Under the pieces are notes generated by a model. It saw nothing but the letters and a program-made list of their open reading frames with translations, did no database searches and was not told the DNA's origin. The position numbers and the translations under genes are program-made. DNA of 61,794 nt from Candidatus Daviesbacteria bacterium (lineage in GTDB: Bacteria; Patescibacteriota; Microgenomatia; Daviesbacterales; UBA10151), in the NCBI GenBank assembly GCA_021731695.1, contig JAKFWZ010000070.1:1-61794 (forward strand). Direction: 5' to 3'. Shown piece after piece: positions 1 to 13,130 of this stretch (positions are counted from its first letter, which is position 1; each line of letters starts with the position of its first letter).

Positions 1-178
1 CCAGTGACAAGTTGCCTGGTGTAGTGAGTGAATTCTGCTTCAGATTTTCACATCCTGAAATGTTCGAAAATCCCCACTACTACTTGCTAATCACATTGCA
101 TCTTGTACCAACTCGTTAATATTACCCGAAACTAAGTTTTGAGTTTAATATCCGAATCTGTGTTGGTATTATTTATAC

Positions 179-883
179 ATGAAGTCGAAGTGGTTCCACT
201 TGAAAGAGATGGTGTCAAACGAAAGACGAATGGGAATGTCTCTGCGAGATGCAAGTAAAAAGTACGGAATACCATCTTCAACTTTAAGCGGATGGTTTAA
301 AAATGTATCGATTGAAGAAAAACATAAAACAAAATTAAGAAATAATTGGATTAAAGGTCTTATTAAGGCCAGAAACAAGGCTGTAGTTTCGAATAACTTG
401 CAGAAACAAAAGCGGTTAATGTTGGCTGAAAAGGAAGCTTTGTTTGCTCTTGCTGGAATTGATACAAGTCAAAAATACATTATTGAACTAGCATTAGCTT
501 TGCTTTACCTGGGGGAAGGGTTTAAAACACAGAATGGTACGGGAATGGGCAGTTCAGATCCTTTAATTCTAAGGTTTTTTGTGTTTGCCCTGATTGAAAT
601 TTACAAAGTTGAAATTGCTTCAATTAAATGCAGTTTGCATCTCAGGGCTGATCAGGATCCCGATAAAATGCAATATTACTGGGCTAATGAATTGAATTTA
701 CCCCTAAGTAATTTTACTAAATCCAGTGTTGATCTAAGGACTAAGGGTAGACCTACTTATCCGACTTACAATGGAGTTTGTGTGGTTCAATGTGGTAATA
801 TTTCAATTCAGCGAAAGTTAGTATACTTAAGCCGGATTTTTTGTGAGCGAGCGGTTAGCTCAGCTGGTAGAGCGCCTACTTGA
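179..883 (+). CDS. HTH + degenerate LAGLIDADG-like putative endonuclease, 3' end overlapping tRNA-Val
   Basis: N-terminal HTH-like segment (SLRDASKKYGIPSSTLSGWF) and LAGLIDADG-like helix LALALLYLGEG; TGA stop lies in the tRNA anticodon loop. Confidence 0.6.
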   Translation: MKSKWFHLKEMVSNERRMGMSLRDASKKYGIPSSTLSGWFKNVSIEEKHKTKLRNNWIKGLIKARNKAVVSNNLQKQKRLMLAEKEALFALAGIDTSQKYIIELALALLYLGEGFKTQNGTGMGSSDPLILRFFVFALIEIYKVEIASIKCSLHLRADQDPDKMQYYWANELNLPLSNFTKSSVDLRTKGRPTYPTYNGVCVVQCGNISIQRKLVYLSRIFCERAVSSAGRAPT

Positions 884-923
884 CGTGTAGGAGGTTTCAC
901 AGGTTCGAGCCCTGTACCGCTCA
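849..923 (+). tRNA. tRNA-Val(GAC)
   Basis: Acceptor gagcggt/accgctc, D-arm gctcagctggtagagc, anticodon arm cctac-ttGACgt-gtagg, T-arm acagg-ttcgagc-cctgt; variable region is 7 nt (aggtttc). Confidence 0.93.
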
Positions 924-942
924 CATATTACGAGTTGCTTAG

Positions 943-978
943 CTCCGCGGAGAAAAGTGTATTATCCCCTCGAGTCAC
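943..978 (+). repeat. Orphan att-like scar: hairpin + gtgtatt + tRNA-3'-end-like atcccctcgagtcac
   Basis: Same gtgtatt(a/g)tcc junction as the scars at 3592, 10299 and 12161, but the following sequence matches no tRNA in the window. Confidence 0.6.
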
Positions 979-982
979 AAGA

Positions 983-1687
983 TTAACCTTTTAACGCGTG
1001 AAGAATTTTACCTCTGGGATCTTCCGGTATCTCTTCCTGCTGGAGAGTAAATCCTAGTTCCTGCATATGTTTTTCGGCTTCACTGAGCCCGCTTTTTAAA
1101 GCAAAGCTAATAGCGAGAAGTTCAGGTTTTCCCTGGAGAATTGATTCTACTACTTCAGCTCCCCATGGAATTACCTGTAATTCCACTCCTGGTTTTAAAA
1201 CTCTATAGCTTTCGGAAGCACCTCTTTTTAATGCCTGAATATTTCTTGTTAGAAGTTCGCTAAAAGCAAGATTAGAAATTATAAGATCTACACTTGCATC
1301 ATCGAAAGGTAATGCGCTCATAGTTCCATTAATATATCTTTCAGGATTTGAAAGGATAGAAGTTCTAAATTCTGCCATAGTTTGTGTCGCGCCGATTATT
1401 TCGCCTTCAGGTAATGAGCCTCTGCTTAGATAAGCTTCTACATCTCGATATACTCTCCTGGGATTTTCATATCTTGGATCGATTGAATAAGCATCTGCAC
1501 CCAGTTCCAGGAGTCGAGCGGTCATATTTGATGCCCCTCCTCCAATATCAAGAATTCTCAATCCCAAAACACTTTGTGGAAAGCTGAATTGTGTTATAAG
1601 AGAGTCATAATCCATGGCTGAACAAGGCACTCTATACGCCGTCTCTCTTTCTCTCATTTGTGCTAATCTGTCGGGATTATAAGACAT
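983..1687 (-). CDS. Class I SAM-dependent methyltransferase
   Basis: Motif I ILDIGGGAS; ALPFDDASVDLIIS; YRVLKPG. Confidence 0.85.
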   Translation of the reverse strand: MSYNPDRLAQMRERETAYRVPCSAMDYDSLITQFSFPQSVLGLRILDIGGGASNMTARLLELGADAYSIDPRYENPRRVYRDVEAYLSRGSLPEGEIIGATQTMAEFRTSILSNPERYINGTMSALPFDDASVDLIISNLAFSELLTRNIQALKRGASESYRVLKPGVELQVIPWGAEVVESILQGKPELLAISFALKSGLSEAEKHMQELGFTLQQEEIPEDPRGKILHALKG

Positions 1688-1726
1688 AAATTGTATTATA
1701 GGATGTATCTAAGGTAAAGCAAAGTA

Positions 1727-2614
1727 TTATCCTGCTCCCTGTCCACCTGTTGAAGATAAAAATCCACCTTCTGCAACTTTATCCATATTCATATCAGGTG
1801 CCCCGCCGGCTGAAGCAATTTTTTGTTCTTTTTCCATTTTTTTAGCCTGTTTTTCCTGTGACTTCGTCGCAATTTCAAACATCGAGGAAGCATAAACTGT
1901 AATTCGTCCGAAACTATCCTTAATTCCCTTATACGATTCCTGACCGATTTTAGCGGTTTTGTTAATATTTTCCTTTTCAGCTGCATCCATTCTTGCTGCA
2001 TCTGCATTGGGGGCTGCTCCAACTTGTGCCTTAAGGCCCTCGTAAAAGGCTTTAATATTATTTTGTTTCTTCATATTCTCAGCTTTCTTTTCCGCAGCTT
2101 TTTGCGCCTTAACCGGATCTGTCTCAGCTTTTTCTTTCCTTTTGGCTTTTTTAGGTTTAACAATATCGAGCGTATCCATAAATATTTCGCCAAAAATTGC
2201 GAGGGCTCCAAAAAGACCTTTACCGATTTCCTTACCTGCGCTTCCTACATTAAGTTTAAATCCGGCTTCTTCTAAGCTTGAACCGCTGCCCTTCAAATTA
2301 TCCTCAGGCGTAAACATATCCTTAAATTCATTCTGGTGGAAGTTTTGATTTTGAGAAATTTCCAAATTCTCTAGTACTCTTCTCTCTGTAAGCTCCATCT
2401 GAACAACAGGAGTTTCAACGGCTGTTTGTTTGAGATCCTCTGTCCTTAAATTATAAAAGTCAGCCCAATTGTTAGAGATTTCCTGTTTATGCGCCTCTGT
2501 ATACGTAACCTCTGTATTATCAGGTTCTGCCTGTTCAAATTCAGTAATGTTTTCGATATTTTTAAAAAGATTATCGTTTGAGATGCCTGGAGAAGGGGTT
2601 TGTGTAGGATTCAT
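1727..2614 (-). CDS. Hypothetical protein (charged, coiled-coil-rich)
   Basis: 295-aa ORF, no recognised motif. Confidence 0.7.
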   Translation of the reverse strand: MNPTQTPSPGISNDNLFKNIENITEFEQAEPDNTEVTYTEAHKQEISNNWADFYNLRTEDLKQTAVETPVVQMELTERRVLENLEISQNQNFHQNEFKDMFTPEDNLKGSGSSLEEAGFKLNVGSAGKEIGKGLFGALAIFGEIFMDTLDIVKPKKAKRKEKAETDPVKAQKAAEKKAENMKKQNNIKAFYEGLKAQVGAAPNADAARMDAAEKENINKTAKIGQESYKGIKDSFGRITVYASSMFEIATKSQEKQAKKMEKEQKIASAGGAPDMNMDKVAEGGFLSSTGGQGAG

Positions 2615-2711
2615 GTATATGTATTATATCATTGAAAGTGAAGCTGATCAAATAACTATAAGATACGAGTTCTGTGAACAGTATTCTGATAAGTTCCGAT
2701 TCTTTTTAAAG

Positions 2712-2752
2712 AGTATTACATAATTGACAAAGTAATACTTTATATATATAGT
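2712..2752 (+). promoter_or_regulatory. Sigma70 promoter of the TA operon with overlapping palindromic operator
   Basis: TTGACA 2724-2729, 17-nt spacer, TATAGT 2747-2752; agtattac-N12-gtaatact inverted repeat straddles the -35. Confidence 0.75.
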
Positions 2753-2758
2753 AATATC

Positions 2759-3013
2759 ATGCAGTTTACAACATCAGTAACTCAAAAGGGGCAGGCTACG
2801 ATCCCTGCAGCTATCCGTAAAGTTTTAGGCATAAAAACAAATACTAAAATTGTCTTTGAGCTTAAAAATAAAAACGAGGCTGTAATCAGACCTGTCACGG
2901 ATTTCTTTTCCCTAAAAGGCTCTGTTAAAACGGATAAACCGTTTGATTTAAGTGCCATGGAAAAAGCCATAGGCGATGACATTGTTAAAAAATATGTCAA
3001 AAAATCTTCTTGA
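2759..3013 (+). CDS. AbrB/MazE/SpoVT-family antitoxin
   Basis: TSVTQKGQATIPAAIRKVLGIK..TKIVFE signature; overlaps the downstream PIN gene. Confidence 0.88.
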   Translation: MQFTTSVTQKGQATIPAAIRKVLGIKTNTKIVFELKNKNEAVIRPVTDFFSLKGSVKTDKPFDLSAMEKAIGDDIVKKYVKKSS

Positions 3014-3386
3014 CACTAATTTAATTATCCGTTTCCTGGTTAATGATGATTCCGAAAAAGTTAAAAAAGTCGAGGATCTGCTAAGGAATACAGATAATAC
3101 GAACATATTGCCTGACACAATTATTGCAGAGATAATTTGGGTTTTGAGTTCCTACTATTACCTTCAGAAATCTGAAATTACCGAAAAAATTAAAGCCTTA
3201 ATTCATGTGGAGTCTGTAGATTGCAACGCGGTACTGATTAATAAAGCGCTTTCGTTGTGGGAGGAGAATAATATTTCCTATGTAGATTCATATCTGGCTG
3301 CTATAGCTGAGCTTGGAAACATTACTCTTTTGTCGTATGATCGTAATTTGAAATCTGTAAGTTCAATTACAGTGAGAGAGCCGTAA
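2994..3386 (+). CDS. PIN-domain (VapC-like) toxin
   Basis: LLDTNLIIRFL, IIAEIIWVL, SYVDSYLAA, LLSYDR; start moved to ATG 2994. Confidence 0.88.
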   Translation: MSKNLLDTNLIIRFLVNDDSEKVKKVEDLLRNTDNTNILPDTIIAEIIWVLSSYYYLQKSEITEKIKALIHVESVDCNAVLINKALSLWEENNISYVDSYLAAIAELGNITLLSYDRNLKSVSSITVREP

Positions 3387-3405
3387 GATAAAGCATTGCA
3401 TAGAA

Positions 3406-3486
3406 GCCCGAGTGGTGAAATGGTATACACGATAGATTTAGGATCTATTGCCGCAAGGCGTGGAGGTTCAAGTCCTCTCTCGGGCA
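3406..3486 (+). tRNA. tRNA-Leu(TAG)
   Basis: gcccgag/ctcgggc acceptor, ataga-ttTAGga-tctat, long variable arm gccgcaaggc, T-arm. Confidence 0.95.
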
Positions 3487-3616
3487 CAAGTTTTGGGTTC
3501 TGCACTTTGTGCAGGTTCCAAAAATTTTGACGGAGCATGAGGCTTTAATCAAATCTATGATTTGGTTCAGCTTCCCGCCTTGGCGGGATGAGTGTATTGT
3601 CCTCTCTCGGGCACAA
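3472..3616 (+). mobile_element. tRNA-3'-duplicating mini-element, copy 1 (18-nt direct repeat, 127-bp period)
   Basis: gtcctctctcgggcacaa at 3472-3489 and 3599-3616; conserved core tttaatcaaatctatgatttggttcagc-hairpin-gtgtatt. Confidence 0.8.
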
Positions 3617-4411
3617 TCAACTGAATCTTTTAACAGCAGAGGCATGAGCTTTGTTTTCCAGTTCATCATCTAATGCCTTTAATTCAATCTCTTTACCATA
3701 TTTAACCTCTAAAGCTTTTTTAATTAACCAATCAGCTAATTCAGGATTCTTTGGCAAAAGTGAGCCGTGCATATAGCAGCCGATTGCATTCTTATATATA
3801 CAGCCTTCGGTTCTGTCCTCGCCATTATTTCCAAATCCTTTTATCAGTTTGCCTAAAGGTTTTGCACCCTGTCTGCCGGCCGGCAGGCCTTCATTAAGAA
3901 AAGTGCGGCCGGAATGGTTTTCGAAACCCACTAAAAGGTTATGAGTTATGGGAGCTGGGTTATGTGAATTATTTTTACTCATAACTCCTAACTCATCACT
4001 CATAACTTTGATTACAATATTCCCAATCATTCTCTCCTCCGATGCATTTGTGTATGCAGGGAAGATTCCAACACCTTTTAATTTTTCGCCTTCCTCAGGT
4101 GCGTAATAATCGCCTAATAGCTGATATCCGCCGCAGATTGATAAAAGCGGAACTCCTCTTTCAATTTCTTCTTTTAAAATAGGGCCTTTTTTAATTAAGT
4201 CTTTGGCTACTGCAATTTGGGATTCATCCTGCCCCCCGCCAAAGAAATACAAATCTGCATCACCTTTTTTAAACCCTGATCCAACTGAAATCTGTTTTAA
4301 TTCTACTTCAATTCCCCGCCACTCACTTCGTTTTTGCAGCGCAATAATATTCCCGGTGTCCCCGTAAATATTCATTAAATCGCCGTATAAATAGCCGATT
4401 GTTAGTTTCAT
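3617..4411 (-). CDS. gatD: GatD, CobQ-like glutamine amidotransferase (peptidoglycan amidation); carries two in-frame repeat insertions
   Basis: LYGDLMNIYGDTGN, ICGGYQLLG, GFENHSG, YMHGSLLPKNP; immediately downstream of murT. Confidence 0.92.
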   Translation of the reverse strand: MKLTIGYLYGDLMNIYGDTGNIIALQKRSEWRGIEVELKQISVGSGFKKGDADLYFFGGGQDESQIAVAKDLIKKGPILKEEIERGVPLLSICGGYQLLGDYYAPEEGEKLKGVGIFPAYTNASEERMIGNIVIKVMSDELGVMSKNNSHNPAPITHNLLVGFENHSGRTFLNEGLPAGRQGAKPLGKLIKGFGNNGEDRTEGCIYKNAIGCYMHGSLLPKNPELADWLIKKALEVKYGKEIELKALDDELENKAHASAVKRFS

Positions 4412-4423
4412 AGCTTGTTTTTC

Positions 4424-4506
4424 GTCATTGCGATATCGCGAAGCGAAGAAGCAATCTCAGTAAGCTCTGGGATTGCCGCGTCGGCCCAAGGTCTCCTCGC
4501 AATGAC
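4424..4506. repeat. REP-like inverted element (gtcattgcg...gcaatc / gattgc...cgcaatgac)
   Basis: Terminal gtcattgcg/cgcaatgac inverted repeats; same family as 23583, 23946 and 25830. Confidence 0.8.
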
Positions 4507-4508
4507 GC

Positions 4509-5792
4509 TCATTCCTTCCAGTATTCCTTCTTAACTCCTTTTTTAACTAAGATCTTTTGTAATTCTAAAAGCGCAGTGTACGTTGGTAATATAAATAGTC
4601 TGCCTTTTGTTGATTTAACAGCTTTATCGAATACCTGTTCAATATCAGATTCGATTGCCGGAACCGGAAAATCAGCATATTTAAGTCTTAGAGCCATATC
4701 AAGCGATCGTGTCCCTGACACGTAAAGCTGATAGCTGTGGGCCCCCGAAGGGGAAGATGGCTGATAGCTTTCAAATGGAATATCCCAAATCCATGAAACA
4801 TCTTTTCCGTCTGCAAAATTATCGTTTAAAGCAAGTATCAGTGAATCCTGCGGAGTTAAAGCGGGCATAACAGTTTGCATAACCTGAGTTGCTCCAACCG
4901 GATTTTTAATTAAGAAAATATAACCTTCCTTCCCGTTAAGTAAAAACTTTTCGCTTCTGCCGAAAGATGAACTTAAATCTTTAAGGCTCCCGGCCTGGGA
5001 TTCATTTAAGTTGCCTATCAGATACTTTGCAGCTAAGGCCGCGGTTGCATTACAGACATTGTAATCACCGGGAATTGATATAGAAACCGGAGTATTGAAT
5101 TTGTCTGCTATGAAATGAAAGTCCGAATCTGAAAATGTAGTTTTTAAATCGACTGCTTTAAAATCTGCTTTTCTTATGCCTGAAGACTTTTTCTCTCCCG
5201 GAATAGTGAGTCCTTCGACAGTAAAATTATAAGTTTCTTTACCTGTTTTCGCTAAAGAATTTAAACTCCCGTCATCAGTATTTATAAGTAGTTTAGTTTT
5301 ATCCGGAAGCTTTTTTAGAGTGTTTAACCACTTATTAACTATCGAATCAACTTCACCATAACGATCAAGCTGATCTCTGTAAACATTCAGCAGGATTATT
5401 AAATCGGGCTTTATTTTAGGGGCAAGAGTATTAAATGCAGCCTCATCAACCTCCCAAATTGCCACCTGTTCCTTAATTTTTCCGTTTAATGAGGCATGTT
5501 TAATTAGAACAGAAGCAATCCCCCTTTCTAAATTTGACCCCGTTTTATTTCTTATTACCTCGATTCCTTCTGATTTGTATAGTTGAGCGAGCATTCCCGA
5601 GGTAGTAGTTTTACCATTTGTACCTGTAATAATAATTTGTTTTGGAATTTGAGACGAGAGACCCTGAATCAGATTGGAATCAACTTTTAGCGCATAAAGA
5701 CCTGAAGCCGCGAATCCTCCGCCTAATTTAAGTGTTCGCGAAAGAAAGAATGTCAATTTGCCTAAAAAAATAGCTGCGATGGTTTTGAACAT
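4509..5792 (-). CDS. murT: MurT, Mur ligase-like subunit with DUF1727 C-terminal domain
   Basis: ITGTNGKTTT P-loop, EVDEA, RDQLDRYGE, LIKNPVG, ADGKDVSWIWD, PTYTALL. Confidence 0.93.
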   Translation of the reverse strand: MFKTIAAIFLGKLTFFLSRTLKLGGGFAASGLYALKVDSNLIQGLSSQIPKQIIITGTNGKTTTSGMLAQLYKSEGIEVIRNKTGSNLERGIASVLIKHASLNGKIKEQVAIWEVDEAAFNTLAPKIKPDLIILLNVYRDQLDRYGEVDSIVNKWLNTLKKLPDKTKLLINTDDGSLNSLAKTGKETYNFTVEGLTIPGEKKSSGIRKADFKAVDLKTTFSDSDFHFIADKFNTPVSISIPGDYNVCNATAALAAKYLIGNLNESQAGSLKDLSSSFGRSEKFLLNGKEGYIFLIKNPVGATQVMQTVMPALTPQDSLILALNDNFADGKDVSWIWDIPFESYQPSSPSGAHSYQLYVSGTRSLDMALRLKYADFPVPAIESDIEQVFDKAVKSTKGRLFILPTYTALLELQKILVKKGVKKEYWKE

Positions 5793-5826
5793 GCAGCATA
5801 ATTATAACCTCAATAGAGCTCAATTG

Positions 5827-6495
5827 TTAATTTAATATATCAATTCTAAACGTATGATTTACGTTCGCAAGAGTTGCCTTAAGATTTCTTGTTTCAGGCA
5901 AATCAGATGTAAGCTCAGTATTAACAAGCTCAAGTTCAGCAAGTTCAACGTCAAACGGATAGTTAGCTGCATATTTTTCAATATCGTTCATAAAGAAGTT
6001 AACATGAGTTCCCCAAGTTTTAGATGAGGCATATTTTTTGTTCATCGAAAAAGGCTCCGTATAACCTTTATCTACGTAATTTTCTTTAAGTCCTTTTGAG
6101 ATTGTAAAAATAGCTTCTCTCCATGATTTAAATTTCAAAACATTATCTCCGTAAACTCCCCATCCCCAACCGTTGTATGAAGTGTATAAAGGATCATGTC
6201 CTCCAGGAATAGCTTTACCGAAAGTAGATTCAGTACCGGCAATAGACGCAACAAGTCTCCAGTCAAGTTCGTACTGGTCTGCCGCATCAATAAAGTCTTG
6301 TGCGTTATTTTCTAAAGGTGAATTATGTTTGGCTAAATAATCCTTTAAGATAAGAACTCTTTTATCGACAGGTTTAGCCTCTATTGTCATCAACTGCTCA
6401 TCAGCAGCGTACACAGGTTTGACCCCTGTTATTAATGTAGGAAGGGCTAATTGAGAAAGGACTAAAAGACCCAAAAGTATTTTTTGAAGTTTCAT
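5827..6495 (-). CDS. Secreted glucosaminidase/lysozyme-like cell-wall hydrolase
   Basis: Signal peptide; DFIDAADQYELDWRLVASIAGTESTFGK and YNGWGWG motifs. Confidence 0.7.
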   Translation of the reverse strand: MKLQKILLGLLVLSQLALPTLITGVKPVYAADEQLMTIEAKPVDKRVLILKDYLAKHNSPLENNAQDFIDAADQYELDWRLVASIAGTESTFGKAIPGGHDPLYTSYNGWGWGVYGDNVLKFKSWREAIFTISKGLKENYVDKGYTEPFSMNKKYASSKTWGTHVNFFMNDIEKYAANYPFDVELAELELVNTELTSDLPETRNLKATLANVNHTFRIDILN

Positions 6496-6670
6496 AATTG
6501 TTTTTCTGTTAACAAGCTGTGTTTATGACTTTGCAAGCTTTGCTTATGAACAGAATCTCGAAGCTTTGGGTTAATCTCCAAGATTGAATTGAATAGTATA
6601 TACTATGAGCCTTAATTTGTCAAATAATTAGGGCGTAGCTAATCCTAGAAGATGGCTTTTAGGGCTAAAC

Positions 6671-7951
6671 TTATTCTTTCCTTGAAGGTTTGAGTTTAAG
6701 TATCCGTTCCCAGCTAATCTTAGGAAAATTAGGACTTTCAAGCAGTGACAAATGTATTCCCCTTGGTTCAGAGAATTTTGAGCTGACTTTTGGTCCTTCT
6801 AGAAGTCTCTGAAGTACACTTTCATACCACTTTCTAAAATCCTCAGCGTCATCCTCTGGAACTGTGTTAAATGCATCTTGAGCCATTGACATAAATTCTT
6901 CAGGATCAATATACTGTGGGTCTCTAAGTTGCACTGGGGTTAATGGGTTGGTAAATATTCTTCTAAGCTTCCTTTGCCGATCTTCCAGCCTTTCTATGAT
7001 GACATCGTTTGAGTACACTGCAGTTCTAATTGCGTCTTTTCCGTATCCTTCTTCTGCTACGATACCGAATCCGTTTTCTCTAATAACACTTGGTATTTTT
7101 CGCTTGTCATCAGCTTGATGATATAGTTGTGCTAGTTCGTCAACCTTCTTCTGTGAAAAACCTTTATCTCTAAGGTACCCTAATACACTTACTACTTCAT
7201 CCGGGCTAGGAAAAAACGAAAAATCGCGTTGATCACGGACCCAAAATTTATCTAGGACGAATAGATAGTAAACTCTACCTTCAAAATACACAGTGATGCC
7301 GCCTTTATCGTAGGGACCACCCTCATTGTGCTCTCTTATGTATTCTTTTTTATATGGATTTGGTTCAGTTATTGTTACGAATGGCAGCCTGAGTCTCTCG
7401 GCATGACCTTTAAAGAGTTGAGCAAGGTCTTCATCAAGGAAATCTTTGGTTTCTGTTGTTTTAGCAAAGAATCCCGCCAGTTCTAATCTTGAGGTGCCGG
7501 CACTACCGTAGGCTATAATTTCATTATAAGAGCCTCTTCCGGTTTGACGTAATATATCTTCAGGAGCTGGAACACTCATATTTTGCGCCTGGCGAATTAA
7601 TAAATTTCTATTGTATAGATGAGCACCAATGTCATGGTTTGATCCCATTAATAAATTAGCAGAAGGAACTCCAACTATAAGGCCAGCCTGACCCCAGGTT
7701 CCAGTGTGATTTTGGTCTATAAGGGACATTGATAGAGCAATTCTTCCAGATAATCCCTCCGGAGATTGTGATAAATTTATACTCTGATCGCCCTCTAGCG
7801 ACTTAGTTATTTCAGATCTTATTTGCTCTTGTGCTGCGAGTGTGTTCATATGCACTCTGGATGCTGGATTTATAGCATGTACTAGGTATCTGAAATTTTG
7901 AGTGTCATGCTGATCAGGATTAGTCGTAGAACCCCAATTTGTTTCTTTCAT
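6671..7951 (-). CDS. Hypothetical protein (orphan)
   Basis: Long ORF; TATAAT 7 nt upstream of ATG 7951. Confidence 0.7.
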   Translation of the reverse strand: MKETNWGSTTNPDQHDTQNFRYLVHAINPASRVHMNTLAAQEQIRSEITKSLEGDQSINLSQSPEGLSGRIALSMSLIDQNHTGTWGQAGLIVGVPSANLLMGSNHDIGAHLYNRNLLIRQAQNMSVPAPEDILRQTGRGSYNEIIAYGSAGTSRLELAGFFAKTTETKDFLDEDLAQLFKGHAERLRLPFVTITEPNPYKKEYIREHNEGGPYDKGGITVYFEGRVYYLFVLDKFWVRDQRDFSFFPSPDEVVSVLGYLRDKGFSQKKVDELAQLYHQADDKRKIPSVIRENGFGIVAEEGYGKDAIRTAVYSNDVIIERLEDRQRKLRRIFTNPLTPVQLRDPQYIDPEEFMSMAQDAFNTVPEDDAEDFRKWYESVLQRLLEGPKVSSKFSEPRGIHLSLLESPNFPKISWERILKLKPSRKE

Positions 7952-8011
7952 GATCAAGATTATAGCAAAAATTTACGTATAATACAAACTATAGGTTAAT
8001 TGCGAATTACG

Positions 8012-9016
8012 TTAAATTTTAAGAAGAGTTTGGGCTAGTACTTCAGGGTCATGTCTTAAAAGATGTTCTTTTGGTGAATATTTTGCCAGGTTGGCTTTTA
8101 TAATCTTGGCATTAGAAGCTATTTTTTTAATCTCAGCTTCATCTAGTTTAACCTGCATCTGTCCTTCTTTGGCATACAGCTTTTCGATATCTGAATCAAT
8201 TGAATCCGCATTCGCCACAATATAATCAATTCGATTACCGTCACCGAGATAAAACGAAAGAGCCTTTATAAAATCGGAAGCTTTAAAAGAATCAGTTTCA
8301 CCCCTCTTGGTCATTAAATTTAAAACAAAAATTAATTTAGCTTTTGAAGAATTGATAGCTTCGGCAACTCCGTTCACTAAAAGATGAGGCAATATAGAAG
8401 TATAAAGGTCTCCTGCAGAAAGAACAATTTTATCAGCTTGGGCAATTTCTTCTAAAGCTTTAGGATTTGCATCAGCCTGAGAATCAAAATAGATCCTTGA
8501 AATCTTATCTTTTGGTTTAAATTCCTCTCCTTCGCCACGAGTATCGATAAGAGTTTCGCCTTCAATAACGTTTCCGTCAACAGTTTTAGCGCATAGCTCC
8601 AAATCTGATAAAGACACCGGAACGACCTGACCCCTGACTCTAAATAATGCACGGGCTGCATCTAATCCTCTGTCGGCTCCCTGATATAAAAGTTGTAATT
8701 GGGACTGAATAAGATTTCCTAAAGCATGCCCCTTTAGAGGGCCGTCTACTTCTTTAAACCTTTCATTAAATAATCTTTGGGCGACCTGACGCTGGGCATC
8801 ATCTTCCATTAAAGCCAGTAAGCACTGTCTCGTATCTCCCGGAGGTAAAACTCCCATTTCAACCCTAAGTCTTCCTGAGCTTCCGCCAGAATCCCAGGTT
8901 CCGGTTATCGCAATAATAAGTTCAGGATTGTTTTCATCGACTAAACCACGAAGTAAAGAATAGTGTCCAGTCCCCCCGCCAAGTGTGACTATTTTCTGAT
9001 CAGTTTTGCTCATCAT
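8012..9016 (-). CDS. yvcK: YvcK/GlmR-family UDP-GlcNAc-binding protein (CofD-like)
   Basis: IVTLGGGTG, DSGGSSGRLR, PPGDTRQCL, GHALGNL, NLMTKRGET; start trimmed so it does not overlap tRNA-Leu. Confidence 0.9.
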   Translation of the reverse strand: MMSKTDQKIVTLGGGTGHYSLLRGLVDENNPELIIAITGTWDSGGSSGRLRVEMGVLPPGDTRQCLLALMEDDAQRQVAQRLFNERFKEVDGPLKGHALGNLIQSQLQLLYQGADRGLDAARALFRVRGQVVPVSLSDLELCAKTVDGNVIEGETLIDTRGEGEEFKPKDKISRIYFDSQADANPKALEEIAQADKIVLSAGDLYTSILPHLLVNGVAEAINSSKAKLIFVLNLMTKRGETDSFKASDFIKALSFYLGDGNRIDYIVANADSIDSDIEKLYAKEGQMQVKLDEAEIKKIASNAKIIKANLAKYSPKEHLLRHDPEVLAQTLLKI

Positions 9017-9090
9017 TCCCACTAAAGATACCACAATACCGCAAGAGTGGGAAATAAAAGATTTTTGGGGTAGAATTGGATAACTTCTTC

Positions 9091-9173
9091 GCCCCGGTGC
9101 TGGAATGGTAGACAGGCTAGCCTCAGAAGTTAGTGCCAGCAATGGCGTGGGAGTTCAAATCTCCCCCGGGGTA
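9091..9173 (+). tRNA. tRNA-Leu(CAG)
   Basis: gccccgg acceptor, ctagc-ctCAGaa-gttag, long variable arm, T-arm. Confidence 0.95.
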
Positions 9174-9215
9174 CAAGATTGACTTTCGGTAAAACTTTGG
9201 ATATGTTAACTTAGC

Positions 9216-9878
9216 ATGGGGATAAGCATTAGGTGGAGTGCTAAGTTAGCTTATGTAGTAGGTCTTATTGCCTCTGATGGGTGCTTATCAAATGATAGAA
9301 GACATATTGATTTTACCTCTAAGGATTTGGAACAAGTACAAACCTTCGCCAGATTATTAAAACTAAATAACAAAATTGGAACAAAAGGAATAAGCAGGAA
9401 AGATGGTCAACTTTACTATAGAATAGAGTTTGGAAATGTTAATTTCTATAGATTTCTATTAAAAATAGGATTAACTCCAAATAAATCGAAAACAATAGGT
9501 ATACTTTTAATTCCGGATAAATATTTTATTGATTTTTTAAGAGGCTCTTTTGACGGTGATGGACATTCTTACTCTTATTGGGATCCCAGATGGAAAAGTA
9601 GTTTTCAGCTATATATTGGATTTTCATCAGCCAGTCTTAAGCACATTGAGTGGTTACAGTCTAAAATTGAGAGTTTATATAACCTGAGGGGAAATGTTAA
9701 AAAAGGAAATCGCTCATTCCAGCTTGAGTTTGCAAAATACTCTTCGCTTCTTTTAATTGAAAAAATTTACTATAAAAAAGGTCTACCATTTCTTACAAGA
9801 AAGCACTCGAAAATTACAGCTGCATTAAGTATAATATCGACCAGTAAGCGGACGTGGCGGAATGGTATACGCGTATGA
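9216..9878 (+). CDS. Free-standing double-motif LAGLIDADG endonuclease
   Basis: AYVVGLIASDG and FLRGSFDGDG motifs; lies between two tRNA-Leu genes with its stop inside the second. Confidence 0.88.
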   Translation: MGISIRWSAKLAYVVGLIASDGCLSNDRRHIDFTSKDLEQVQTFARLLKLNNKIGTKGISRKDGQLYYRIEFGNVNFYRFLLKIGLTPNKSKTIGILLIPDKYFIDFLRGSFDGDGHSYSYWDPRWKSSFQLYIGFSSASLKHIEWLQSKIESLYNLRGNVKKGNRSFQLEFAKYSSLLLIEKIYYKKGLPFLTRKHSKITAALSIISTSKRTWRNGIRV

Positions 9879-9928
9879 TTGAGGTTCATATGCCGCAAGG
9901 CGTGGAGGTTCAAGTCCTCTCGTCCGCA
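9848..9928 (+). tRNA. tRNA-Leu(GAG)
   Basis: gcggacg/cgtccgc, tatga-ttGAGgt-tcata, variable arm gccgcaaggc. Confidence 0.95.
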
Positions 9929-10096
9929 CAGTTTAGGTTATAATACAAATGGCTTAGGGTTAAGATAGTAAAACACTGAAGTCCAGTGAACTTCTAACTT
10001 ACTGTTCAGTCGAAGTCGTTTAGACTTCGAAAACAGGGCACTTTAGATAGTTATACGCGAAGCGGAACTATCGCAAGGGCCCCGAGCGCAGCGAAG

Positions 10097-10169
10097 GGGC
10101 ACTTAGCTCAGTTGGTAGAGCGCTTCGTTTACACCGAAGATGTCAGGGGTTCGAGTCCCTTAGTGCCCA
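10097..10169 (+). tRNA. tRNA-Val(TAC)
   Basis: gggcact/agtgccc, cttcg-ttTACac-cgaag, T-arm. Confidence 0.96.
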
Positions 10170-10323
10170 CATTAAAAAGAGGCTATCTTTAGATAGACTT
10201 TTTTAAATTGGTTTTGGTAGGGAGCGAATTAAATCTTTGAAGACCGTAGGTCGCAAGCTCTGCTTATTTGGTTCGGCTTTTTCTTTCTAAGAAAATGGGT
10301 GTATTGTCCCTTAGTGCCCACAT
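10155..10323 (+). mobile_element. tRNA-3'-duplicating mini-element, copy 2 (18-nt repeat, 151-bp period including a ~26-nt nested insert)
   Basis: gtcccttagtgcccacat at 10155-10172 and 10306-10323; core aaatctttga[insert]tttggttcggc-hairpin-gtgtatt. Confidence 0.8.
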
Positions 10324-10347
10324 AAAAGAAAGTAAAAAAAGGTGATT

Positions 10348-10827
10348 TTATCGAAATCTTCTTAACTGCTGGAATTGCGCACTTAATGCTTCATTTGTTA
10401 AATATGCCCCATAGGTACCAGAAGGATTTAACGGTTGATTTCGTGATTCATCTCTAATCTTTGTCTGTTCATCTTGGGGCAAAGAACTAAATTGACTTTG
10501 TTGAAATCTGATTACTTCACCTAGGTTGGATAGTCTTGAAATATCAGGAACAGAAGCGCTTGGTTTTGTATATGTAAAAATAGTATGCCCCGCAGCGTCT
10601 GTCCACTGTCTTAGTACCCGGGTGTTTTCTGGGTTAATGTCAATTTGTCCGGCAGCATTCCGGTTAACAACAACACATGTTTCTTGAAGCTTGTAGCCAG
10701 CTTCTTTCTCACGCAGCGCCTTCATTTGTTCATCAAATTCTGCTTGACGAACAGCACGTCGAGCTTTTATTCCTGCCAATACCTCAGGAGGTAGGTTTTT
10801 TAATTCGTCTAAAGGGTCCCGATCCAT
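10348..10827 (-). CDS. Hypothetical protein (orphan)
   Basis: 159-aa ORF with upstream -10-like element. Confidence 0.7.
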   Translation of the reverse strand: MDRDPLDELKNLPPEVLAGIKARRAVRQAEFDEQMKALREKEAGYKLQETCVVVNRNAAGQIDINPENTRVLRQWTDAAGHTIFTYTKPSASVPDISRLSNLGEVIRFQQSQFSSLPQDEQTKIRDESRNQPLNPSGTYGAYLTNEALSAQFQQLRRFR

Positions 10828-10913
10828 GAGAGAATTATATCATATTATAGGTTATAAATGAATTTAATACCCATTGATTTGACTAAATTTTATTAATAAG
10901 ATTAATTGAAGTT

Positions 10914-11120
10914 ATGGACTCAATATTAAAAATTCTCGCACTTTATGGTTTGGTCTTTTTGCTTTTGACTTTAACTGCAAATTTTCTCTGGAGAGCTTTT
11001 CCTAAAATAAAAGGAGACATTTATCTACAAAATACCGGAATTGATTTCTATATTCCCTGTACATCTTCGGTAATTATTACAGTCATCATCACAATGCTCT
11101 TCTTCAATTACTTCAAGTAA
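10914..11120 (+). CDS. DUF2905-family small membrane protein
   Basis: Two TM helices with KGDIYLQNTGIDFYIPCTSSVII pattern. Confidence 0.65.
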   Translation: MDSILKILALYGLVFLLLTLTANFLWRAFPKIKGDIYLQNTGIDFYIPCTSSVIITVIITMLFFNYFK

Positions 11121-11178
11121 GCTTTTTGTCTAAAGAACTTATTTAAGTTTCGATAATTAAGCTGCTATTATAAAATGA

Positions 11179-11655
11179 GTGAATATTAAAAAATGCTCCA
11201 TGTGCGGTGAAGTAAAAAGTGTTTCGGAGTTTTACCAAAGAAGAAAACATCGTAGCGGAGAGTATTACGAAAAATGTAAAGATTGTTCTAAGACGCGGGG
11301 TAGAAATTATTACCACCAAAACCATGAGCGTCAACTACGACTGGCTTTACTCAGAAAAGATAGATATAAAGAGGAACGAAGAAAATGGCTTGAAAAAATA
11401 AAGGATAGACCTTGTATTGATTGTGGTGTAAAATACCCTCCATATATCATGGATTTTGATCATAAAGATGGTGTGGTCAAAATCGCAAGTATTTCCTGGT
11501 TGGCATTGCATAATACATCCAACCTTGAAGTGATTAAATTAGAGATAGCAAAGTGCGAATTGGTTTGTGCTAATTGTCATAGACAGAGAACGCACGACAG
11601 ATTAAAAAAAATTAAATCAGCCGCAGTAGCCAAGGTGGTCAAGGCAGGTGTTTGA
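11179..11655 (+). CDS. HNH endonuclease with N-terminal Zn finger, 3' end overlapping tRNA-Phe
   Basis: CSMC..CKDC, PCIDCG, DFDHKD, CELVCANCHRQRT. Confidence 0.85.
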   Translation: MNIKKCSMCGEVKSVSEFYQRRKHRSGEYYEKCKDCSKTRGRNYYHQNHERQLRLALLRKDRYKEERRKWLEKIKDRPCIDCGVKYPPYIMDFDHKDGVVKIASISWLALHNTSNLEVIKLEIAKCELVCANCHRQRTHDRLKKIKSAAVAKVVKAGV

Positions 11656-11692
11656 AGAACATCCTATTTCAGTTCGACTCTGGACTGCGGCA
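11620..11692 (+). tRNA. tRNA-Phe(GAA)
   Basis: gccgcag/ctgcggc, ggtgt-ttGAAga-acatc, ttcag-ttcgact-ctgga. Confidence 0.9.
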
Positions 11693-11732
11693 CACTTCAC
11701 TTCGTTCAGTGTAAACCCTGAAGAAGTGGTTT

Positions 11733-11981
11733 TTGTATATTTTGACAAGAATCGATGATAGTTTTTACACAGGAATTACATCGAATCTTGAAAGAAGGGT
11801 AAAAGAACATAACGAAGGTAAGAGTTTATCGACTAAAGGAAAGCTTCCGGTTAGTTTAGTTTATTGGGAAAGTTTTCCAGATAAATATAAAGCTGCTCGG
11901 TATTTTGCAAGAATAAAAGGATGGAGTAGGTTAAAGAAGCAGAATTTAATCAGTAAGTTTACATTGAGTCAGCTAAGCTGA
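11733..11981 (+). CDS. GIY-YIG nuclease (small, UPF0213-like); start uncertain
   Basis: YIL...FYTGITSNLERRVKEHN; preceded in frame by aag-tgg-ttt where ATG-TGG-TTT would be expected. Confidence 0.75.
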   Translation: MYILTRIDDSFYTGITSNLERRVKEHNEGKSLSTKGKLPVSLVYWESFPDKYKAARYFARIKGWSRLKKQNLISKFTLSQLS

Positions 11982-11987
11982 CGAAAT

Positions 11988-12059
11988 GCGGGAGTAACTC
12001 AGTGGTAGAGTGCCTCGTTGCCAACGAGGATGTCGAGGGTTCAAATCCCTTCTCCCGCT
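11988..12059 (+). tRNA. tRNA-Gly(GCC)
   Basis: gcgggag/ctcccgc, cctcg-ttGCCaa-cgagg, T-arm. Confidence 0.96.
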
Positions 12060-12184
12060 CTTAAAGAAAAAGTCGACCCTTGTGGTCGATCTTTTTGTTT
12101 AAAGGGAGGGTTGGGATTTTAATCAAATCTTTGATTTGGTTCAGCCTCGCGAAGCGAGTCGTGTATTATCCCTTCTCCCGCTCT
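12045..12184 (+). mobile_element. tRNA-3'-duplicating mini-element, copy 3 (17-nt repeat, 123-bp period)
   Basis: atcccttctcccgctct at 12045-12061 and 12168-12184; core tttaatcaaatctttgatttggttcagc-hairpin-gtgtatt. Confidence 0.8.
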
Positions 12185-12189
12185 CAACT

Positions 12190-12915
12190 TTAAGCAGTTC
12201 TGAAAAAAAATTTTCTGTTTTTCCAATAATCTCTGTCTACCTCTCCGGCCTTAAGATCTGCAAAATACCTCTCATCCATTCTTCCATCAGACCAATTTGC
12301 ATAGTCTCTTTTTAGGACTTTCACTTTTTCTCTTAAAATAGGATTATTACCAAATGGAGATTTGTAGCCGCGGTAAACCATTAACTCTTCTGCCACCGTC
12401 GCTCTATCATCTAAGAATGTGTGCCGACCATAAACTTCTGCATATCCTGAGCAATTAACTTTACTAAGTTGTCTAGAATTTAAATCCCAATAAGCATCTC
12501 CTAAATAAGGTAATAAAGGATTATTTAGTTCTTTCCATTGGGCAATTCCTCTGTCAGATAAAGCACCCGGTTGTTGATCAGCTCTGTGCAATATTTCGTG
12601 ATGAACTATGCGAGGCCTTACCATATCAAAATATATTGGCCCATTACTAAATGCCAGTCCTGCTACCGAAATCCATCGTTCTCCGATTCTGTGTTCTATA
12701 TCATTTGCTATGAGTAACTGAGAAATATTGCAATCACGGATAAACTCAGGCGGGTAGACTTTTAATGCATCTCTGAATTCAGATACATCTTCAGCAGCAT
12801 ACTCTATAAGATCTTTTAGAGGTTCAAGCTTAACAGTCTTGGGTACTTCTACTAACCTTGGAGAAACTCTTACAGTCAATCCATACTCCTTTTTTAATCC
12901 TCTTAAATCTTTCAA
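12190..12915 (-). CDS. Putative zinc metallopeptidase (HExxH); N-terminus possibly cut by an in-frame TAA
   Basis: HHEILHRAD and YAEVYG..FLDDRATVAE resemble the putative zinc-binding metallopeptidase family; upstream in-frame ATG at 12993 followed by TAA at codon 6. Confidence 0.6.
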   Translation of the reverse strand: MKDLRGLKKEYGLTVRVSPRLVEVPKTVKLEPLKDLIEYAAEDVSEFRDALKVYPPEFIRDCNISQLLIANDIEHRIGERWISVAGLAFSNGPIYFDMVRPRIVHHEILHRADQQPGALSDRGIAQWKELNNPLLPYLGDAYWDLNSRQLSKVNCSGYAEVYGRHTFLDDRATVAEELMVYRGYKSPFGNNPILREKVKVLKRDYANWSDGRMDERYFADLKAGEVDRDYWKNRKFFFRTA

Positions 12916-13130
12916 CAGCTGAAAAAAACTTCTTCTTTGATAGAGTTGATAGTCATTTCCACACTCTTGAAGTATTTATCTGACCTCATTCATATGATTA
13001 TAGTAGCAAATTAAAAGATTAAATTCAAACTATGGGGTAAAAAATCCCCCTTTAATTTACTCTTTGTACAAATTACTTTGCCTAGGCTTGAGCAAATCTC
13101 AGGGGAGATTAAATTTTCCTATTCCATTGC

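Follow-up and report, generated by a model that had tools for sequence, protein, structure and literature searches.

Putative homing endonuclease cassettes at the 5' ends of tRNA genes in a Daviesbacteria genome and in other Patescibacteria

ORFs in contact with tRNA genes

The DNA stretch studied here (61,794 nucleotides, referred to as the window; GenBank assembly GCA_021731695.1, contig JAKFWZ010000070.1, of a Candidatus Daviesbacteria bacterium) contains four open reading frames (ORFs) of different protein families, each of which ends inside or directly before a tRNA gene on the same strand (Table 1). The window is contig C3 of a 1.45-Mb assembly with 102 contigs and 45 tRNAs (genome label G000), and its host is an ultra-small groundwater bacterium. 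Seven intact and uninterrupted tRNA genes were found in its first 12 kb with ARAGORN and Rfam. A preliminary description had placed the ends of three ORFs 35, 31 and 36 nucleotides (nt) inside tRNA-Val(GAC), tRNA-Leu(GAG) and tRNA-Phe(GAA), and the end of the fourth 6 nt before tRNA-Gly(GCC). All four positions are exact, and these tRNAs are, as it also stated, intact and free of introns, with 54-72 bits against the Rfam tRNA model (cut-off 29) and no interruption detected by ARAGORN.

The three overlapped tRNA genes encode the end of the ORF that runs into them, i.e. the final 11 codons and the stop in tRNA-Val, the final 10 codons and the stop in tRNA-Leu(GAG), and the final 11 codons and the stop in tRNA-Phe. 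The TGA is formed by U33-G34-A35 in tRNA-Val and tRNA-Phe, and by positions 29-31 in tRNA-Leu(GAG), which are located in the anticodon stem and not in the anticodon. TGA is an ordinary stop in this organism since none of the 45 tRNAs of the genome has a UCA anticodon, and an alternative genetic code as the source of these stops is ruled out by the absence of such a tRNA.

The same geometry was found elsewhere in the genome. Same-strand ORFs of at least 80 amino acids (aa) ending between -10 and +70 of a tRNA start were detected at 8 of the 45 tRNAs, compared with 2.4 for random points (P = 0.002), an excess that answers the doubt, raised in the preliminary description, that such overlaps might be no more frequent than expected by chance. 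Seven of these eight ORFs fall into the LAGLIDADG, HNH and GIY-YIG families or the helix-turn-helix (HTH) family of ORF 179..883, and the eighth is MazF/PemK-like by eye.

Table 1. Coordinates of ORFs, tRNA genes and associated features in the window, and ORFs with the same geometry on other contigs of the genome.
Feature	Position	Strand	Basis and remarks
Promoter-like site TTAATA-16-TATTAT with TG	145..172	+	Just 5' of the HTH-family ORF; consensus scan only
HTH-family ORF, 234 aa	179..883	+	Transposase-type HTH and uncharacterised C-terminal domain; ends 35 nt into tRNA-Val(GAC)
tRNA-Val(GAC), intact	849..924	+	ARAGORN; Rfam 59.9 bits
tRNA-Leu(CAG), left neighbour of the LAGLIDADG locus	9091..9174	+	ARAGORN
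Degenerate tRNA-Leu 5'-half remnant (D loop to anticodon loop)	9179..9207	+	TTGACT-17-TATGTT, sigma-70-like; promoter scan
LAGLIDADG gene, two motifs, 220 aa	9216..9878	+	Pfam, PHROG; ends 31 nt into tRNA-Leu(GAG)
Promoter-like site TCGAAA-17-TATAAT	9807..9835	+	In the 3' end of the LAGLIDADG ORF, 13 nt 5' of tRNA-Leu(GAG); pattern match and conservation
tRNA-Leu(GAG), intact	9848..9929	+	ARAGORN, Rfam
Small membrane-protein gene, 68 aa, conserved	10914..11120	+	Flank marker for the tRNA-Phe site
Decayed tRNA-Phe remnant, positions 29-58 (anticodon arm to T arm)	11127..11153	+	Local alignment; 3 of 2000 shuffles reach it
HNH gene, 158 aa, N-terminal zinc ribbon	11179..11655	+	PHROG; ends 36 nt into tRNA-Phe(GAA)
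tRNA-Phe(GAA), intact, unusual allele	11620..11693	+	ARAGORN, Rfam
Small stand-alone GIY-YIG gene, 82 aa, TTG start	11733..11981	+	Pfam; ends 6 nt before tRNA-Gly(GCC)
tRNA-Gly(GCC), intact	11988..12060	+	ARAGORN, Rfam
HNH ORF	C16		Ends 6 nt into a tRNA-Tyr
GIY-YIG ORF	C20		Ends 21 nt into tRNA-Asn
LAGLIDADG ORF	C38		Ends 67 nt into tRNA-Ser(CGA)

Protein families involved

The LAGLIDADG ORF of the window matched Pfam LAGLIDADG_3 (E = 1e-9) and the endonuclease family phrog_4645 (E = 6e-28). Residues D21/G22 and D113/D115/G116 are invariant in eight relatives and an acidic residue is kept in both motifs. Its two motifs, the catalytic acids and the profile match all point to a LAGLIDADG endonuclease. 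The HNH ORF was similar to phrog_2255 (HNH, E = 5e-31) and had no Pfam match at E <= 0.01. Residues C6, C9, C33, C36, C79, C82, D94, H95, C130, N132, C133 and H134, among them eight zinc cysteines, are invariant in nine relatives, and the predicted product thus keeps the catalytic His, Asn and His of a beta-beta-alpha-metal core and the CxxC...CxxC zinc ligands expected for an HNH nuclease.

The domain of the small GIY-YIG ORF was recognised by Pfam (GIY-YIG, E = 1.8e-14). Its sequence RYFARIK takes the place of the motif [RQG]EKxxK, and of the features of a complete nuclease of this type (GIY and YIG strands, Arg and Glu) the Glu, which we take to be the metal ligand, has been replaced. This residue is kept in all the other 13 copies of the genome, and its loss suggests that the window gene is probably decaying. 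The orthologue in the related genome G001 is intact and has the Glu, and the one in G007 is a pseudogene distributed over three frames.

ORF 179..883 has an HTH of the Psq/Sleeping-Beauty type (Pfam HTH_psq, E = 1.8e-5) and belongs to a family with 688 homologues at E <= 1e-5, the invariant residues of which include E113, G114, K116, R156, D158, Q159, D185 and R187. The C-terminal domain is well conserved in the family. AlphaFold models this domain confidently, with a predicted local distance difference test score (pLDDT) of 93, and Foldseek searches with it against PDB and BFVD gave no match at E <= 1e-3; Pfam and PDB profile searches matched only the HTH. A LAGLIDADG identity was considered and rejected, with a probability of 0.3% in the hhalign comparison with the LAGLIDADG alignment and no LAGLIDADG match in Foldseek or profile searches, so that the label "HTH-LAGLIDADG-like" first given to this ORF has to be abandoned. 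The preliminary description had also spoken of four unrelated nucleases and had allowed for dead catalytic residues. Both statements now divide: the LAGLIDADG and HNH genes are intact and keep their catalytic residues, while the window copy of GIY-YIG has lost the conserved Glu and the HTH-family ORF is left without a LAGLIDADG match.

Pairing of families and tRNA species across the phylum

A profile built from the LAGLIDADG alignment was run against one genome per species and 538 relatives were confirmed, the best 80 of which come nearly all from metagenome-assembled genomes of Patescibacteria type. In 58 of 60 checked loci a tRNA-Leu(GAG) (AAG in two of them) starts at the end of the match or just after it, the two exceptions being matches that run off the contig. 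Of 401 genomes sampled from the phylum, 66 carry the HTH family, and 28 of 29 loci are directly 5' of a tRNA on the same strand. The close relatives of ORF 179..883 are found at tRNA-Val(GAC) (ten loci) and the next subfamily at tRNA-Ala(GGC) (nine loci), followed by others at Met, Ser, Ile(TAT), Gly and Asn. The HNH family (42 of the 401 genomes) has 10-12 of its 13 best loci within ~90 nt 5' of a tRNA for Phe, Arg(TCG), Arg(TCT), Lys, Trp, Pro or Gly, and remote matches to the HNH core are not placed in this way. Small GIY-YIG genes are present in 256 of the 401 genomes, with 14 copies in this one, and are only loosely linked to tRNAs.

The preliminary description proposed for this lineage that several families came independently to occupy the 5' side of tRNA genes. 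This idea is strongly supported by the LAGLIDADG and HTH loci and by the closest HNH loci, and it reaches the whole phylum. ORFs that run into tRNA genes in genomes of the Candidate Phyla Radiation (CPR) are real, a point of caution for annotators.

Occupied and empty sites

The tRNA cluster Leu(CAG)-Leu(GAG)-Val(TAC)-Phe-Gly(GCC) is conserved within the family to which the host belongs, with very variable spacers. The Leu(CAG)-Leu(GAG) spacer measures 673 nt here versus 4-16 nt in G010, G017 and G003 (the last from the same genus), and the Phe-Gly spacer 294 nt here versus 4 nt in G005 and G016. A homologue of the small membrane-protein gene is found directly upstream of tRNA-Phe, ~20 nt away, in G003 and G010, and the HNH gene occupies the gap between both genes here and in G006. 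The HNH orthologues of G006, G008 and G022 likewise run into tRNA-Phe. In G001 and G006 no HTH-family ORF was found upstream of tRNA-Val(GAC). Relatives without the ORFs, with which a comparison had been suggested from the start, show empty alleles at the Leu, Phe, Gly and Val sites.

The distribution of the genes is patchy. LAGLIDADG was found in 11 of 41 relatives with its best matches in other genera; orthologues in two other genera are 56-62% identical, and other members of the host's own genus lack the gene at this site. Five genomes of that genus with a CofD 81-83% identical have no HNH, and the identity of HNH is 67% with G008 and 54% with G006, versus 51% and 72%, respectively, for CofD. 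This patchiness and the discordance of HNH with CofD give the pattern of a mobile gene and not that of plain vertical descent. Vertical inheritance without empty alleles, one of the outcomes that would have spoken against the preliminary description, is contradicted by both the empty alleles and this discordance. Presence or absence at a fixed site beside a conserved target, as found here, is the behaviour of free-standing homing endonucleases.

The tRNA-Phe of this genome is 76-81% identical to the copies of the same genus. At least three alleles of this tRNA exist within one genus, with paired changes in the acceptor, anticodon and T stems (alignment A6). Such a divergence is unusual for a single-copy tRNA and fits a putative replacement of the whole gene. 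When the alleles were compared for changes that might protect an occupied site from the nuclease, the stems were seen to differ in HNH-positive genomes, but also in HNH-negative ones.

Duplicated tRNA segments upstream of the ORFs

Decayed tRNA copies were found upstream of the LAGLIDADG and HNH ORFs of the window and of two further ORFs of the genome (on C20 and C38). In G024 and G007 the LAGLIDADG start is preceded by the 5' half of a tRNA-Leu, up to its anticodon loop. The alignment of 33 LAGLIDADG upstream regions from the whole phylum gave the consensus AATTGGTAnACGC...TTGAG, equivalent to tRNA-Leu positions ~14-38, and in many of these loci a TATAAT-like box comes after the remnant. The pattern GGYAnnC-N7-11-YTGAG is present in 17 of the 33 loci against 0.03 expected (maximum of 2 in 1000 shuffles). 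Ten of the 33 loci, where 0.3 would be expected, have a -10 box after the anticodon loop. Shuffling each locus by itself is a weak test (5 of 31 loci were at or below 5 of 500 shuffles) and it is the pattern count across loci that is decisive. The remnant of the window is homologous by position to the 'GGTAnACGC..yTTGAGG-TATAAT' of the relatives. In three loci (L002, L059 and L060) the upstream tRNA-Leu half is full length and represents an allele different from that of the functional copy, so the repeat is something other than a plain tandem copy made on the spot.

Upstream of the HNH gene of G006 there is a tRNA-Phe remnant comprising positions 29-61 (0 of 2000 shuffles reach it), perhaps what is left of a whole decayed tRNA. 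On C20 a copy of tRNA-Asn from -7 to +25, with a hairpin inserted in the D loop, is found upstream of the GIY-YIG ORF that ends at +21, and on C38 the LAGLIDADG ORF that ends at +67 has upstream of it a decayed tRNA-Ser copy comprising positions 3-65. The end of the ORF and the boundary of the repeat nearly coincide: 36 vs ~38 for LAGLIDADG/Leu, 21 vs 25 for GIY-YIG/Asn and 67 vs ~65 for LAGLIDADG/Ser. A direct repeat of the tRNA 5' part flanks the ORF in LAGLIDADG/Leu(GAG) and, in this genome, in GIY-YIG/Asn and LAGLIDADG/Ser, and these three have the appearance of insertions with long target duplication. HNH/Phe has a decayed tRNA copy upstream, and a target duplication of this kind was not found for the HTH family. 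This goes beyond the preliminary description, in which the ORFs simply sat 5' of the tRNAs: in several cases the overlap appears to be part of an insertion with target duplication, and the ORFs would not be merely parked upstream.

Other arrangements of the same elements were seen in relatives. In a Paceibacterota genome (L150, 1377-2193) an HTH-family member is located 50 nt downstream of tRNA-Val(GAC), with no tRNA after it and with its end overlapping tsaD, a placement implying that either copy of the repeat may be the survivor. In G003 (L015, ~1290-1470, minus strand) the real tRNA-Gly(GCC) is preceded by two tandem units, each made of the 5' 23 nt of tRNA-Gly and a spacer of ~37-67 nt that ends in gctttcccccgaactactgaaaaatgatatttaa; such units may mark D-loop sites from which cassettes have since been lost. 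In G006 the first 10 nt of tRNA-Gly are repeated at a distance of 22 nt on the upstream side.

A model for the insertion of nuclease genes at tRNA genes

We consider that the four ORFs are rather likely to be selfish, free-standing cassettes of the homing endonuclease type, each specialised on the 5' side of one tRNA gene. This reading draws on the specificity of families for tRNAs, the occupied and empty alleles, the discordant divergence, the decay of some copies and the repeats that flank three of the four nuclease kinds; the inserts are single ORFs without an integrase. The nuclease would cut a naive tRNA gene. Judging by the ends of the repeats, LAGLIDADG would break it close to the anticodon loop and GIY-YIG within the D arm, and no break point can be read from the HNH remnant. 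Repair would then copy the ORF together with a replacement tRNA part from the donor, the tRNA sequence on both sides providing the homology. Where the ORF is flanked by a repeat of the 5' part, the upstream copy decays and, in the LAGLIDADG family, has turned into a promoter-like region with a presumed promoter function, and the downstream copy makes up a working tRNA and encodes the last codons of the ORF and often its stop. In this way a nuclease gene could invade an essential RNA gene without an intron.

Several observations weigh against this interpretation. The HTH-family C-terminal domain has no nuclease domain recognisable in fold or profile searches, and no significant tRNA remnant was found upstream of HTH-family ORFs, either in the window (where the ORF has only 178 nt of contig upstream of it) or in 11 relatives. 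Alignment searches also gave no significant tRNA remnant upstream of the window GIY-YIG and the C16 HNH. The LAGLIDADG remnant of the window is too decayed to be significant alone by shuffling, and the HNH remnants represent the middle and 3' part of the tRNA and not the 5' part, fitting a 5'-part duplication less well. Only 4 of 29 small GIY-YIG loci are directly 5' of a tRNA (2 of the 14 copies here) and ~7 of 29 are directly 3'. Besides, the cassette regenerates an intact tRNA, so that the presumed target would persist in the occupied allele, and most LAGLIDADG and HTH-family copies are intact with 50-60% identity across the phylum, for which a function selected by the host is also possible.

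A wider proposal can be made only tentatively, and we would lean slightly against it: Patescibacteria might harbour a large undescribed class of intron-less cassettes that bring along a replacement tRNA 5' segment, and the HTH family might be a new type of site-specific DNA endonuclease. The replacement 5' segment would act at the same time as homology arm, as restorer of the tRNA and as the coding end and stop of the cassette, and the displaced fragment would be reused as a promoter. If this were true, the HTH family, with 688 members and subfamilies that each go with a different tRNA isoacceptor, would be a natural series of tRNA-gene specificities and a natural panel of long-site DNA-recognition modules. 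To the two routes by which homing nucleases settle in essential conserved genes, introns and inteins, a third would be added, the duplication of the displaced piece of the target, which spares the host. Hundreds of CPR 'hypothetical proteins' would acquire a role, and the tRNA fragments, unusual tRNA alleles and variable spacing of tRNA clusters would be explained.

Alternative explanations

The alternative that survives best, although it is unlikely, is that the overlap is regulatory. The nuclease mRNA would read into the tRNA, RNase P would remove the last codons and the stop, and rescue by transfer-messenger RNA (tmRNA) would limit the output, tying nuclease production to tRNA processing. 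Six ORFs of the genome, three of them in the window, do end within a tRNA, and a tmRNA gene is present (C33:5756-6182, 92.8 bits with Infernal; ARAGORN gave none), which makes an RNase P-induced non-stop decay of the read-through nuclease mRNA possible. When the first in-frame stop was located in 32 LAGLIDADG relatives, eight stopped exactly at U33-G34-A35, a coincidence that also favours a regulatory role, but the rest did not conserve this position: the D arm (positions 11-21) contains six of the stops, the window ORF has its stop at 29-31 and another ORF at 42-44, and 16 stop before tRNA position 1, one of them on the base just before the tRNA. In all, 17 stop inside the tRNA or touching it and 15 stop 1-22 nt upstream, so the constant feature is the tight contact of ORF and tRNA and not the overlap. 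Moreover, the residues of the tail are merely dictated by the tRNA sequence. In the LAGLIDADG loci of Microgenomates a TATAAT box is located 10-13 nt before the tRNA, inside the ORF, where it encodes a conserved AL(S/G/D)II, and this -10-like box at the 3' end of the ORF indicates that tRNA-Leu(GAG) is probably transcribed from a promoter of its own. The self-limiting RNase P switch imagined in the preliminary description is weakened by these data; because the stop position varies, it would be optional at best and not a general requirement, and it is speculation. If the ORFs are homing endonuclease cassettes, the borrowed stop would be a by-product of tight packing and not a conserved device.

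We give slightly less credit to the possibility that the ORFs are domesticated or host-beneficial partners of the tRNA genes, acting as transcription regulators or as guardians against other elements, and are not mobile nucleases. Their positions are very stable and most frames are intact at ~50-60% identity across the phylum, and HTH-family proteins contain a DNA-binding HTH without any nuclease domain that could be recognised. Nevertheless, the families are found in only 10-27% of the sampled genomes and are missing from genomes of the same genus, some genomes have many paralogues, each at a different tRNA, and pseudogenised copies exist. The HNH identity, discordant with that of CofD, and the preserved catalytic residues of LAGLIDADG and HNH are also difficult to reconcile with such a role and agree better with mobile cassettes.

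It is very improbable that the nuclease genes are the surviving cargo of integrase-mediated islands that used tRNA attachment sites. tRNA genes are the classical integration sites and partial tRNA duplicates result from integration (PMC9897764), and many tRNAs of this genome do carry duplicated 3' ends downstream. Yet each insert is one ORF of 0.25-0.7 kb without an integrase, the LAGLIDADG and GIY-YIG repeats are tRNA 5' segments contiguous with the ORF end, and the families are locked to their own tRNA species throughout the phylum, unlike cargo. An endonuclease borne by a group I intron in the tRNA was also considered and rejected, as there is no ribozyme (Rfam searches at E <= 0.1 over positions 1..13000 gave only the intact tRNAs, with no ribozyme or other family), the tRNAs are complete according to ARAGORN and an intron would find no space; the tRNA half upstream of the ORF usually lacks the acceptor strand in LAGLIDADG loci, which counts against its being an intron exon. 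Chance contacts in a compact genome, with its high coding density and ~2.4 contacts expected at random, can be dismissed almost completely, given the eight observed (P = 0.002), seven of them from four ORF families, and are refuted by the recurrence of the same family-tRNA pairs in 58 of 60 and 28 of 29 independent genomes.

Other features around the tRNA genes

Bacterial tRNA-Tyr normally has a long variable arm. The tRNA-Tyr(GTA) at the HNH ORF of C16 (C16:11120-11193, minus strand) has 74 nt and a short variable arm, and a canonical 88-nt tRNA-Tyr exists on C70; the short one may be an extra tRNA brought by the HNH cassette. Genes for RNase-type toxins also adjoin tRNA 5' ends, as illustrated by a MazE/AbrB-PIN toxin-antitoxin pair (window 2759-3386) that ends 19 nt before tRNA-Leu(TAG) and by the MazF/PemK-like ORF (C70:234-617) that ends 6 nt before the canonical tRNA-Tyr.

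At least 12 of the 45 tRNAs are followed by an element of ~80-150 nt, found in the window at 3488-3614, 10171-10322 and 12061-12183 (with a degenerate version at 925-980), on contigs C1, C17, C18, C20, C22, C26, C34 and C40 of the same genome, and also in G003 and G007. It comprises a terminator-like hairpin, a strand complementary to the tRNA 3' end, a conserved box (TTTAATCAAATCTTTGATTTGGTTCRGC), a hairpin whose stems differ wholly in sequence from copy to copy yet pair, GTGTATTATCC and, after these, the final 12-16 nt of the tRNA, repeated exactly. The element had no match in Rfam. In G006 (L027, ~209-400) a complete tRNA-Leu(CAG) is nested in the anticodon region of an older tRNA-Leu, the 5' part (GCCCCGATGCTGGAATTGGTAGACAGG) and 3' part (...GGGAGTTCAAATCTCCCTTGGGGCAC) of which flank it. 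The two junctions carry the inverted repeats CCCGATGG / CCATCGGG, and the arrangement amounts to one tRNA gene within the pseudogene of another.

Relatives of the HTH-family ORF have a TTGAy...-10 layout before the ATG comparable to the promoter-like site of the window. The longest ORF of CofD (8012-9142, minus strand), which begins with a TTG at 9142, runs over tRNA-Leu(CAG) of the plus strand. Homology to relatives begins near 9010, and for this reason the upstream extension is probably not translated.

Comparison with known systems

In our literature search we met no account of CPR nuclease genes that adjoin the 5' end of a tRNA gene. The nearest relatives in behaviour are the free-standing homing endonucleases of T4-like phages, such as SegB (GIY-YIG), located in a tRNA gene cluster (PMC2330249), and mobE (PMC2790892). 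As in our case, these are intergenic nuclease genes beside tRNAs with a patchy distribution, and they are thought to spread together with their flanks by cutting the allele that lacks them. The genes described here differ from both in being chromosomal, in belonging to one bacterial phylum and in being known from sequence alone. They differ from SegB also in that a family is locked to one tRNA, in the contact or overlap with the tRNA 5' end, and in the partial tRNA duplicate found upstream of several of the ORFs.

I-Ssp6803I is the endonuclease of a group I intron found in a cyanobacterial tRNA-fMet. Intron-encoded homing endonucleases share with the genes studied here a highly conserved RNA gene as target, and in tRNAs the anticodon loop as point of entry. 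Here there is no ribozyme, and the tRNA is kept whole by a duplicated 5' segment and not by splicing. LAGLIDADG genes are also carried by insertions of CPR rRNA genes, in intervening sequences (PMC11270868), which represents the same phylum and the same enzyme type as the LAGLIDADG gene of the window.

Among insertions that duplicate their target, the most similar case is the "insertion with long target duplication" of restriction-modification gene complexes (PMC2853133, and Nobusato et al. 2000 cited there). Both involve a short cassette without recombinase and a direct target repeat of tens of base pairs, and both were recognised by comparison with the empty site. In Patescibacteria the target is a tRNA, the repeat makes an essential RNA whole again and also serves as the coding end of the cassette, and the families are phylum-wide with one target each. 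Integrases also leave scars in tRNA genes, in the form of a partial duplication at the integration of much larger elements (Williams 2002, Reiter 1989, reviewed in PMC9897764). The landing site in a tRNA gene and the partial tRNA duplicate as a scar are common to both. In our case there is no integrase but a single ORF, LAGLIDADG and GIY-YIG duplicate the 5' and not the 3' part of the tRNA, and the single-ORF inserts do not show the recombinase in the insert together with the 3' tRNA duplication that define an integrase island.

Finally, in fractured genes a homing endonuclease gene is found between the halves of a split intein (PMC2677866). There too a free-standing nuclease gene is located in a conserved host gene that is rescued without an intron. 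In that system the rescue takes place by protein trans-splicing, whereas in the tRNA genes of Patescibacteria it would take place at the level of DNA, by a duplication that leaves one complete tRNA gene.

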